DNA of 64,000 nt from Escherichia coli O157:H7. Its GTDB lineage: Bacteria > Pseudomonadota > Gammaproteobacteria > Enterobacterales > Enterobacteriaceae. Positions within the stretch are counted from its first letter, which is position 1. The number at the start of each line of letters is the position of its first letter. Location: the NCBI RefSeq assembly GCF_013167455.1, contig NZ_CP038328.1. One strand, given 5' to 3'. Positions 28,009 to 30,877 of the stretch are shown here, piece by piece. The notes beneath the pieces are model-generated. The model made no database searches. It had not been told where the DNA came from and saw nothing but the letters and a program-made list of their open reading frames with translations. Position numbers and translations under genes: made by a program.

Positions 28009-28458
28009 CTACGGCGGGCAATAATTTTTTAGCGCAGCAATATTATGCGTTTTACGCCGTAACTGATCTAATCGCCTCATCCCTATTCGCCTGTCAGCAG
28101 CACGCAGAATATTCACTAACCCCCATTTATCGCTGGTAAATTGTTTTGTTAACAACTCCGCTTTTGGGGTGTCAATATATTCACGCAATAAATCAGAAAT
28201 TGAACAAATATCCGTCAGGTAAGGATACCAGCAAGTTTCACCGTGAAAATTACGCACTCCACCGTTGCCTGCAATAAAGTCTTTCGGGTAATCCCAGATC
28301 ACGTTTTTATCCAACGTGATCCAATAACGCGGTAAATCGGTGCTTCCACCATTTTGGCTGCGCATGGGATAACGGGTACAGTGAATTTGCAGGTTGATCG
28401 TTGGCGTCAGTAAGTCATAGATCTCCCGCTGTAACTTGCTCCAGGGGCGTTGTGTCAT
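28009..28458 (-). CDS. hypothetical protein, 149 aa, translationally coupled to the upstream 762-aa gene
   Basis: ATG overlaps the upstream gene's TGA (ATGA at 28455-28458); no signal peptide; Trp/Tyr-rich; no recognisable motif. Confidence 0.6.
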
Positions 28459-30743
28459 TGTTTTTCCTCAAGCCGGTGACGCGCTTCATTGCGAATTTTC
28501 CGCGTTGCCCCGGTTTTCACTAAATCCCGTAACTGCGAAAGATCGGGTTTATCGACAAATAAAAGTAATGATGGATCCTCTTTTAGCCACACCGTTTTCA
28601 CATCGGCAGCCAGCTGTGGATTATTAATAGCCAGCGACCGATCCTGAGACTCAGTCAATGTCGTTAACAACGACGCCGGGGTATGTGCGTTGCGTAATGC
28701 CGTTTGGCGCAAATGATCATTGCGACTTTGCAGCAATGCACGCCACCATTCATCATCTGATTTATCTTTTATCGTCGCCAGTTCCGCAAAAATATCGCTA
28801 TCCTCATGGTTCCAGCGGTGTAATCCTCTTTCACTTTGTCTACGGGTGCTATTTTTCATACTGACAACAGCCAGCGCCCAGTCAGAGTTGAAGCGATACT
28901 GTTGATCGAGTTTGTTGATAATTCCGGAAGGTAATTCTTTATTATCAAATAATTGGTTACGCATTCGATAGCGGTATTCAGCGGGTAAATCAACCAGTAA
29001 ATCAATGGCATTATTTAACATCTCTTCGTCAACAACACCATTATCAATCAGCGCCAGCTGTACTTCGTAGGCTTGCTCTTGATCTTCTTGCCGTTTGCTC
29101 ATCATTAAATTTAATGTGCGTTGCCATAACTGTTTCTTATATTCCAGCGGCAATAATTTATCGCGTGCCAGCTCATCCCAGACGGTGGGAACATCATGCT
29201 GAGTCAATAGATAACTAATCACGTCCTTCGATGTCAGATAACGCGCACCTTCGCGCAAATTGTGCACATCTTCTTTTGCCAGAGACAGTTGACGCATCTC
29301 CGGCAACGCTATCAATAACACCTTTACGATATTTTTATTTTCTTTATTATCCAGATACATTTGTTCTGCGATACGTTCAATATCCTCTGTACGCAGGGTT
29401 GCTGACAGTTGGGTAATTTTTAATTCAGTAAGCGTCCGGGCTAATGCTTCACGAACTTTCAGTGATTTATCTTTACTCAACATCACTGCTTGTTGTGCGG
29501 TTAAATCTGCTCCGGTAATTCTTTCACGTAACTCCGGGTCTTCGTTATTTATCAACTCATCGGCCACTGCAGTCGGAACCAGCCAGGCGTAATCGTAATG
29601 GCTGAGTAATGTCTTGCGTACACTGAGAAAGGGGCTATGACTTAACGACGCAACAATATCTGGAGAAAGATTATCCTGTCTGGCCTGCTCCAGCTGTACG
29701 CTCTCGACGGGTACAGACATTAATTTTTTATTCACATCGGCGGAAATATTACTGTTTTTAACCAGCCCTCTGGCAACAGCCTCATCTTTAATTAATTCAT
29801 CGGTAAGCCAATGCATCTGTTGAGCGGGCCAGGACTGCGCCATCGATTCACGCGTCTGGTCATCGGGGTGCTGTAACAGTTGCAGCATAACGGCGGGTGA
29901 TAAACTCTCTGTATGAGTCAGAAAACGTGCCACCAGTGGATCTTGATGCTTTATTTTATTCGCTGGGAAATTATCGAGTTTCCCCGTTTCAATCCATTTT
30001 AATTTCTCATTAATTTCAGGAGCGGCTTTATCTCGAAAAAGCGGTAAACCCTGAACGATGTTGTCTGCGACGCTATCATAGTCAGGATACGCATTGGAAA
30101 TGTTATCGGTTTCGATTTCAGTGTGATCATAAAGATCGGCAGTCACCAGTGAATAGGCTTTTTGAATATTCTCATCCCAGTTATATCCTTCACCACTTCC
30201 ATCTTCATTGATATAAAATTCAGCTTTAATGACTTCAAATTGCGTTGCTTTATCGGAAACAATAATGCCTCGCGCACTAATTCCCTTCATCACTTCAAAG
30301 TTATGATCATTGTAATCAGCATAAACTAAACCTTTCGCTGTCATCTGTCCTTTGACATACGCGAAATCATGATTAATAAAGTTATCGACAATAACATTAC
30401 CTAATACAATCAGATGACCATTACCTGACAGATAATCATCATAATCGCCGGAAATCGTTAAATTACCGTTCACCACCAGTTTATTTTTATTGCTGAAGTT
30501 AGCGGGTAATGATAGGTCACCATTATGATAATACCAGCGGATATTATCTTTTAGCATATAAGCAGCTTCCATACTATCGTCGGTTGCCGCTTTAACCACG
30601 TTGCGCTCATCTGCCGTCATAAGATGAAAGTCAGAGGTGATAAGGTCCTCGCTACTGATCCACTCTGTGGCACATGCATTGCCAGTCATAAAAAATAAGA
30701 CCATACAGATGACCAATATATTAATTCTATTCATAATCTTCAA
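28455..30743 (-). CDS. hypothetical secreted/periplasmic repeat protein, 762 aa
   Basis: N-terminal signal peptide [25 protein letters not shown]; beta-rich N-terminal segment ([31 protein letters not shown]) followed by many degenerate alpha-helical repeats resembling HEAT/leucine-rich-variant repeats; AT-rich. Confidence 0.65.
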
Positions 30744-30877
30744 TGATATTTATATCAACCTTGATGAATTATGAATATATCGGAAATTGAAAAAATCGCA
30801 GCAAAGGAAATATTATTATGGGGTTATGAGAGGACATTTCAGAAAAATGCCCTCCCGTTCAAGCGGAAGGCGAGGAA

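Follow-up and report, generated by a model that had tools for sequence, protein, structure and literature searches.

Introduction

Heterogeneous polyimmunity loci are tandem, co-directional and strain-variable, are often found beside XerC/D recombinases, and have Imm10, Imm43 and Imm51 among the families listed for them (PMC3482391). Proteins made of HEAT, ankyrin or leucine-rich repeats (LRR) are recognised classes of immunity protein (PMC3482391), and recombinase-associated AID (rAID-1) clusters have been shown experimentally to protect Bacteroidales (bioRxiv 10.1101/471110). Here, we compare with these loci a cassette of two genes located between rdgC and ppnP in a stretch of 64,000 nucleotides of Escherichia coli O157:H7 (contig NZ_CP038328.1 of assembly GCF_013167455.1), hereafter called the window. 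One gene encodes a large protein with a DUF2773 domain, the other a small protein of the SF0329 family; we found no published work on ECs0442/0443 (the two genes in strain Sakai), SF0329 or DUF2773. The best explanation for the cassette is that it is a small, old, horizontally acquired accessory islet, deleted or degraded in most E. coli, K-12 included. Its function is a more tentative matter: we give a probability of about 0.35 to its being a minimal, H-NS-silenced, BglJ-RcsB-activated islet of orphan immunity genes. A preliminary description of the window had put the two genes forward as an undescribed coupled system, perhaps a toxin/immunity-like pair or a phage-exclusion module.

Results

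Two coupled genes of low GC content

Two intact genes lie on the minus strand between rdgC and ppnP, in both the list of open reading frames (ORFs) and RefSeq. The large gene (28455..30743, minus strand) is the full-length form of K-12 ykiA and corresponds to ECs0442 of Sakai. It encodes 762 amino acids (aa) from a TTG codon and is labelled a YdbD-family 'DUF2773 domain-containing protein'; RefSeq places its start at the ATG at 30734, three codons further in, which gives 759 aa. The SF0329-family gene (28009..28458, minus strand; ECs0443) encodes 149 aa without a signal peptide, predicted to be cytoplasmic. The stop codon of the former overlaps the start codon of the latter in an ATGA (28455..28458, minus strand; the sequence reads caATGAca), as the preliminary description had noted. 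Its low-GC cassette between rdgC and ppnP was also confirmed: GC content is 0.37-0.46 in the cassette against ~0.51-0.56 in rdgC/mak and 0.508 in the whole window.

E. coli O157:H7 genomes show no difference from the window in the region of the cassette; in strain Sakai, the two genes are ECs_0442 and ECs_0443. We looked for flanking repeats, insertion sequence elements and att-like sites at the borders of the cassette and found none. No recombinase was seen at the E. coli locus, which shares with rAID-1 clusters their low GC though not the adjacent XerD-like tyrosine recombinase that marks them.

An old accessory islet, lost repeatedly

Of 5,426 complete E. coli genomes, 446 (8%), mostly O157:H7, O55:H7 and O145, contain the interior of the large gene and 920 (17%), O104:H4 included, that of SF0329; both ORFs are intact in 443. 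Each gene is thus found in a minority of the species. As the preliminary description had stated, K-12 carries only a short remnant: between ppnP and rdgC, MG1655 has the ykiA pseudogene (342 bp) and the 27-aa ykiD. When translated, K-12 ykiA gives the 113 C-terminal aa of the large protein; in YkiD (L104 3448-3531), residues 1-11 of SF0329 are followed in frame by its last 16. YkiD keeps the ATGA coupling to the ykiA remnant.

Comparison with the window by blastn revealed four deletion states. K-12-type genomes lack 28797..30735, a loss that left ykiA, and approximately ~28065..28426, a loss that left YkiD and whose true extent is an in-frame deletion of 124 codons. Escherichia sp. MOD1-EC7003 lacks 28797-30735 and nothing else. 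In the CH458 type, 28459-30735 is gone and SF0329 is frameshifted, and in E. albertii ~28587-30742 is gone. Since all four states keep 3' remnants of the large gene or of SF0329, the full pair is older than the split between E. coli and E. albertii and was lost repeatedly. The four states share nearly one 5' endpoint (~30736), just inside the start of the large gene, and have other ends at 28459, 28587 and 28797. This common endpoint suggests either a recombination hotspot or selection for keeping the promoter and the start codon. CH458-type genomes have SF0329 directly behind the promoter.

Where the genes are intact, they are under purifying selection. This is shown by the comparison of O157 with strain N96, in which the ratio of nonsynonymous to synonymous substitution rates (dN/dS) is 0.18 for the large gene (dS 0.22) and 0.04 for SF0329 (dS 0.14). 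These ratios and the existence of hundreds of homologs show that the ORFs did not arise by chance. Between the same strains (N96, L102), the neighbouring ppnP and aroM have a lower dS (0.05 and 0.11) than the cassette (0.22 and 0.14), which suggests older alleles or recombination at the locus of the cassette. The O157 allele of SF0329 ends in ...AALKNYCPP (window 28009-28030), a 3'-terminal change that alters the last helix; the tails of N96 and of the K-12 remnant match the family consensus instead.

SF0329 homologs are found in arrays of immunity genes

The small protein belongs to PF25753 (E 4.8e-22) and to NCBIfam NF049912 (93.7 bits against a cut-off of 60). Its homologs (533 matches, mostly at 55-68% identity) come from Escherichia, Leminorella, Paenibacillus, Prevotellaceae, Bradymonadia and others, and identity between phyla is 50-68%. 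The family is present in at least 128 of the 100,044 species representatives of GTDB, spread over several phyla, with carriers that include Escherichia, Leminorella, many uncultured gut Campylobacter, Ruminococcus, Bacteroidales, Leptospira and Photobacterium. None of 50,697 phage records contains it, and it was found on one genuine plasmid (of Photobacterium). The GC content of the gene is frequently below that of its contig. This distribution, patchy yet conserved, indicates horizontal spread.

Foldseek searches of AFDB50 with SF0329 returned its own family and two proteins labelled DUF4304. Kinship with DUF4304 was set aside: the direct Pfam scan gave no DUF4304 match and we found no literature on that family. 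A His-Cys catalytic dyad was also considered and dropped, both residues being substituted in some members.

We found no neighbour of SF0329 conserved across phyla. In many loci, the gene lies inside long co-directional arrays of small genes. Two metagenomic loci (L092 and L093), the only ones with this type of recombinase, have a tyrosine recombinase followed by 12-15 co-directional small genes that include Imm10, Macro and SF0329. Two further arrays (L094 and L095) contain SMI1_KNR4/SUKH_6 and UPF0167, and the Paenibacillus locus has DUF2314 and SUKH-3 nearby. When 103 array neighbours (20 loci) were scanned with Pfam, the matches included Imm51 (twice), Imm43, SUKH_6, SMI1_KNR4, DUF4240 (three times), DUF1963, DUF2314, DUF5071, DUF6985, ADP-ribosylglycohydrolase (ARH) and SIR2. 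Homologs of SF0329 are thus members of immunity arrays in L092-L095, L019, L043, L052, L056, L057 and others; the E. coli locus consists of two genes and has no recognised Imm family. Macro-domain genes stand a few genes away from SF0329 in six loci (L092, L093, L040, L056, L057 and L005). Such Macro, ARH and SIR2 neighbours may be ordinary content of immunity arrays. None of the large ORFs upstream of SF0329 resembled a polymorphic toxin; they were read by eye as GltX, PurL, an acyl-CoA dehydrogenase, a serine recombinase and a dockerin protein.

Other neighbourhoods are more varied. In ~25 species-level metagenome-assembled genomes (MAGs) of human-gut Campylobacter (L046-L086), SF0329 has the same conserved surroundings: it follows two small genes, one of which encodes a transmembrane segment, and precedes a methyltransferase-like gene. 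In Leminorella grimontii (L004 3238-6471), it is the last of five co-directional small genes, including a WGR + DUF4240 protein, and this run is inserted after the tol-pal/cpoB cluster. Some neighbourhoods resemble defence islands: on a Photobacterium plasmid of 32.8 kb (L103 4979-12062), SF0329 adjoins a resolvase and the pair of DEAD helicase and DUF1998, and in a Bradymonadia MAG (L008 1-5356) it adjoins TerB/BrxC-like/helicase genes. In a MAG of uncultured Bacilli (L090 2162-3199), SF0329 continues in frame, within one ORF, into a Tpt1/KptA RNA 2'-phosphotransferase (PDB 7kw8, E 1.4e-50). This junction probably reflects a lost stop codon and not a designed fusion, because a ribosome-binding signal (GGAGA-ATG) is retained. 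A KptA-like gene was found in none of the other loci examined (phmmer, E <= 1e-3).

The large protein is a predicted exported scaffold

The sole Pfam match of the large protein is DUF2773 (PF10971; residues 682-762, E 1.5e-39, full model coverage). This region (28458..28700, minus strand) makes up the last solenoid repeats and lies inside the 113-residue C-terminal part that is kept as K-12 ykiA. The protein aligns collinearly, from end to end, with K-12 YdbD (b1407, 768 aa) at 28% identity over 747 aa (BLASTP, E 5e-84), which makes the window gene a paralog, not an allele, of ydbD.

The chain opens with a predicted Sec-type signal peptide (residues 1-25; 30669..30743, minus strand), read from the sequence, with an AxA site, cleavage between ACA and TEW, and no lipobox. 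Hydrophobic N-termini ending in AxA and followed by (E/D)W recur in most of the inspected full-length homologs (25-50% identity) and in YdbD. The AlphaFold2 model, obtained with 44 homologs, has a predicted local distance difference test (pLDDT) score of 91.8 and a predicted template modelling score of 0.81; in the region of the signal peptide, it places a helix (6-19) at low pLDDT. A beta-helix (~70-180) and a short linker are followed by an uninterrupted all-helical solenoid (~240-762). The N-terminal beta-helix module (~residues 65-180; 30204..30551, minus strand) has three short strands per turn, modelled at residues 71-179 with pLDDT >90, and is the most conserved part of the family. The alpha-solenoid (~residues 240-762, ~520 aa; 28458..30026, minus strand, from the same model) is built of degenerate LRV/HEAT-like repeats.

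Searches of the PDB with the full-length model (Foldseek) returned only generic ARM/HEAT folds (PP2A-A, importins and designed armadillo proteins, E 1e-7 to 1e-4), in matches dominated by the solenoid. Sequence searches of the PDB gave nothing significant for the large protein, SF0329 or a profile of the N-terminal module. Among the 44 homologs of the large protein, Pfam matched LRV in 4 and LRV_2 in 6, and HEAT_2 was matched as well; the window protein itself has no significant LRV or HEAT match in Pfam, the best being HEAT at E 8.5. An EstV match of the large protein in NCBIfam was dismissed as chance, and the MinC match of the N-terminal module and of YdbD was below threshold.

Just five columns are invariant in the 44 homologs: G75, G93, V113 and G115, at turns of the beta-helix, and R237. 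Neither Pfam, the model nor conservation revealed active-site-like residues, a toxin domain or a secretion-system marker. PAAR, Rhs, LXG, TPS and other trafficking domains are likewise lacking, and the beta-helix and the solenoid account for the whole chain. The anatomy given in the preliminary description (a signal peptide, a beta-rich N-terminal module and HEAT- or LRV-like repeats) agrees with the sequence, the model and the Pfam matches of the homologs, and its remark that no catalytic motif is present agrees with Pfam, the model and the few invariant columns. Since enzyme-like conservation is missing, the large protein is most likely a non-catalytic periplasmic binding scaffold or sponge; its location in the periplasm would follow from the predicted signal peptide, and a role in binding instead of catalysis would fit its conservation.

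A search of 1.84 billion representative proteins retrieved 169 clusters related to the large protein, ~35 of which are full-length (~750-800 aa). The remoter relatives share only the beta-helix module, either alone or fused to LRV/TPR or DUF285/LRR repeats, and some have no signal peptide. One remote relative of the module (hhalign probability 98.6%) is encoded in a Sinomicrobium array with two SMI1_KNR4 genes, UPF0167 and DUF1266.

The two genes are not a conserved module

To assess the association between the genes, we ran a hidden Markov model of the large family on all ORFs of the loci examined, with 80 species loci retrieved for SF0329. In 79 of these 80, there is no relative of the large gene beside SF0329; the exception is Escherichia, as a remnant. 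Within Escherichia, the large gene beside SF0329 is intact in O157 and reduced to a 93-aa remnant in Escherichia sp. MOD1-EC7003 and at the K-12-type locus. The only other place where a member of the large family neighbours SF0329 is a metagenomic contig (L002 323-5454), in which an exported copy of the large gene (49% identity) precedes a signal-less copy (30% identity), itself followed 66 bp downstream by SF0329 (71% identity to that of the window). The second, signal-less paralog begins MSTEPVWITNNDL, so that an exported and a cytoplasmic version stand side by side. Since the equivalent genes of this contig are 66 bp apart, the ATGA overlap is specific to the lineage of the window.

Relatives of the large gene also occur by themselves. 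One, at 49% identity, is solitary between sprT and galP-like genes (L096); a second has no SF0329 nearby (L003); a third is preceded by a Sel1-repeat protein and not by SF0329 (L097); and ydbD of K-12 stands without SF0329. In E. coli itself, ~474 genomes retain SF0329 without the large gene. The co-occurrence across genomes that a cognate pair would show is not observed, each gene being found without the other. The pair looks like two functionally independent accessory genes, co-transcribed and translationally coupled in Escherichia by chance, and the preliminary idea of a two-gene system is not supported by this comparison.

A promoter region shared with K-12

The spacer between ppnP and the large gene is 97.5% identical to that of K-12 (blastn). 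In K-12, the ykiA promoter was mapped by 5' rapid amplification of cDNA ends (5'-RACE) and is activated by the BglJ-RcsB heteromer, independently of RcsB phosphorylation; BglJ-RcsB is described as an activator of H-NS-repressed loci in general (PMC3950696). Because the K-12 deletion starts just inside the coding region, the ykiA promoter corresponds to the native promoter region of the full-length operon. Regulation in O157 presumably follows that of K-12, and H-NS silencing of the cassette is suggested by the general description of BglJ-RcsB targets together with the low GC content.

A consensus scan located in this spacer a promoter-like -35/-10 pair (CTGAAA-16-CATAAT; 30815..30842, minus strand), not above the expectation from shuffled sequence, as a candidate for the ykiA promoter region. 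The same kind of scan gave a terminator-like hairpin 3' of ppnP (30851..30870, minus strand), a candidate that would part the transcription unit of the cassette from ppnP.

YdbD, the paralog in K-12

YdbD is encoded in 3,990 of the 5,426 complete E. coli genomes (74%), O157:H7 among them, and its sequence likewise opens with a predicted signal peptide. RefSeq labels this uncharacterised protein 'DUF2773 domain-containing protein/bactofilin'. It is reported to have very low expression plus a fitness signal (bioRxiv 10.1101/038851) and is annotated as 'possibly involved in methylglyoxal detoxification' (PMC13313352). The RefSeq record of Sakai (L098 6386-8665) names ECs_0442 'ydbD'; as the window gene is only a paralog of ydbD, this is a mislabel, the true ydbD being the 28%-identical gene at another locus, present in O157. 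In MG1655, ydbD is directly upstream of ynbABCD (L101 7145-10227). Both ynbA and ykiA are among the ten loci activated by BglJ-RcsB, which places both paralogs at BglJ-RcsB-controlled loci of low GC.

Discussion

What might the islet do?

We tentatively favour a role in immunity. Both genes would be expressed from one normally silent promoter, switched on by BglJ-RcsB, and would be dispensable in most lineages. The large protein would be exported by Sec and, once in the periplasm, bind without catalysis, perhaps trapping toxins that act there. SF0329 would remain in the cytoplasm and, as an orphan immunity factor, neutralise a cytoplasm-acting interbacterial toxin or undo its effect. One periplasmic and one cytoplasmic factor would thereby make up a minimal, pre-emptive immunity islet. 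For SF0329, an immunity function is suggested by the arrays in which its homologs are found. The large family is placed in an immunity setting by its Sinomicrobium relative in an SMI1_KNR4 array and by the tandem paralogs that precede SF0329 in the metagenomic contig.

Several observations weigh against this reading. A cognate toxin was found beside SF0329 in none of the 88 loci carrying it, and the assignment to immunity is consequently one of association alone. The SF0329 alignment has 20 invariant columns, unusually many for an immunity protein that binds a toxin; an enzyme fits them no less well, and so does a factor whose target is universal. In E. coli, the locus is limited to two genes and includes neither a recombinase nor a known Imm family. 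For an immunity protein, ~760 aa is a considerable length; the link of the large protein with immunity is one remote relative, and certain members of its family have no signal peptide. YdbD is listed as induced 3.9-fold under sigmaE-activating conditions and tagged 'induced by methylglyoxal' (PMC2731931). Finally, our literature search turned up no experiment on either protein.

The induction of YdbD is also the starting point of the main rival explanation, to which we give a probability only slightly lower: the large protein would be an envelope-stress or structural periplasmic scaffold like YdbD, and SF0329 an unrelated, possibly enzymatic, hitchhiker. Of the two partners that together activate the ykiA promoter, RcsB is an envelope-stress regulator, but this activation needs no phosphorylation of RcsB. 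Relatives of the large gene stand alone on the chromosome. Against a general role in the envelope, 92% of E. coli lack the large gene, which is hard to square with it. As for the hitchhiker, SF0329 has many invariant polar residues, and the single in-frame junction with Tpt1/KptA and the Macro neighbours in six loci hint at chemistry of NAD/ADP-ribose or of RNA ends; against this, its array neighbours mostly belong to known immunity families.

The same features of SF0329 allow a reading that retains protection and that we regard as unlikely. SF0329 would have a fold without match in the PDB and protect as a new, conserved 'repair-type' factor, reversing or blocking damage to a universal cytoplasmic target; the exported beta-helix/solenoid proteins of the YdbD type would form a new class of their own, as traps for toxins in the periplasm. 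Such a factor would account for the 50-68% identity across phyla and for a cognate toxin never being adjacent. Given the Macro, ARH, SIR2 and Tpt1 neighbours, it could possibly be tied to NAD/ADP-ribose or RNA-end chemistry.

That the cassette is a non-functional relic, heading for deletion even in O157:H7, is in our view quite improbable. Its deletion or truncation in most E. coli through at least four states speaks for a relic, as do a low-GC locus that is probably silenced and an O157 allele of SF0329 with an altered C-terminal tail. However, both ORFs are intact in 443 genomes, and the dN/dS values of 0.18 and 0.04, at dS of 0.14-0.22, are those of genes under purifying selection.

An anti-phage defence or exclusion module of two genes, as the preliminary description had envisaged, is very unlikely. 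The locus is accessory, variably present and of low GC, and homologs of SF0329 have TerB/BrxC-like genes in their vicinity in one MAG, and a DEAD helicase plus DUF1998 on the Photobacterium plasmid, but this proximity to defence genes concerns two loci only. Neither protein matches a family of PADLOC-DB v2 at E <= 1 or has a meaningful match in PHROG; neither has a nuclease, NTPase or sensor domain, nor are there conserved partner genes, and the absence of SF0329 from phage records adds to the case against phage exclusion.

A cognate pair, in which the exported large protein would be a toxin or its carrier and the small protein its immunity factor, agrees with the small gene being immediately downstream with an ATGA overlap and with the linkage in the metagenomic contig (49% and 71% identity), but is highly improbable and largely refuted by the missing co-conservation (SF0329 alone in 79/80 species loci and ~474 E. 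coli genomes; relatives of the large gene, YdbD of K-12 included, without SF0329), by the lack of toxin or trafficking domains in the large protein and by the different compartments predicted for the two products. Of the toxin/immunity-like pair suggested in the preliminary description, the pair therefore falls, and 'immunity-like' remains apt for the small gene alone, as an orphan.

If the reading as an orphan-immunity islet is correct, K-12 ykiA, ykiD and ydbD would gain an origin and a testable function, the first two as remnants of the islet and ydbD as a paralog of the large gene. The list of orphan immunity genes with a part in shaping the competition within gut communities would grow by SF0329, perhaps also by the YdbD family, and the islet would be a difference between O157:H7 and K-12 in interbacterial defence rather than in virulence. 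The main value of these results is explanatory: they concern the origin of ykiA and ykiD, the paralogy of the large gene to ydbD and a candidate new family of orphan immunity proteins, not a new kind of system.

Comparison with known systems

The N-terminal module of the large protein shares with bactofilins and the C-terminal domain of MinC a small triangular beta-helix of ~5 turns. This resemblance is sub-threshold in all cases: YdbD has weak matches to Bactofilin (PF04519; E 0.05) and MinC (E 0.01-0.8), and the window protein has no Bactofilin match at E <= 10. Bactofilin and MinC are cytoplasmic, whereas the window protein has a predicted signal peptide. The all-helical solenoid is common to the large protein and to LRV (PF01816/PF25591; 1LRV) and HEAT/ARM proteins; the large protein differs in being predicted to be exported and in the fusion of its solenoid to a beta-helix.

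YdbD resembles the window protein in length, signal peptide, beta-helix, LRV-like solenoid and C-terminal DUF2773, and its gene has a similarly low GC content of 0.43. It differs in its locus (pdxI-ydbD-ynbA), in having no SF0329 downstream and in its frequency (74% against 8% of E. coli). In K-12, ykiA and YkiD have the same locus and promoter region as the cassette, the window carrying the intact ancestral genes and K-12 the remnants of their in-frame deletion. The two families are catalogued (DUF2773/YdbD for the large protein; SF0329, PF25753/NF049912, for the small one) and K-12 has a paralog in YdbD, so that of the undescribed system of the preliminary description there remain two uncharacterised families.

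The cassette can also be compared with polyimmunity and rAID-1 loci. Homologs of SF0329 are similarly encoded in co-directional arrays of low GC with Imm10/43/51, SUKH, Macro and ARH, as orphans without an adjacent toxin, and in one case the array is directly downstream of a tyrosine recombinase, as in rAID-1 clusters. Neither SF0329 nor the YdbD-type large protein matched a named Imm family in Pfam scans. The E. coli islet differs from these loci in that one of its products has 760 aa and is predicted to be exported, and its role in immunity is a putative one. On the reading favoured here, the cassette is a new, small, decaying example of this known kind of locus, drawn from two named but uncharacterised families, and not an undescribed coupled system.

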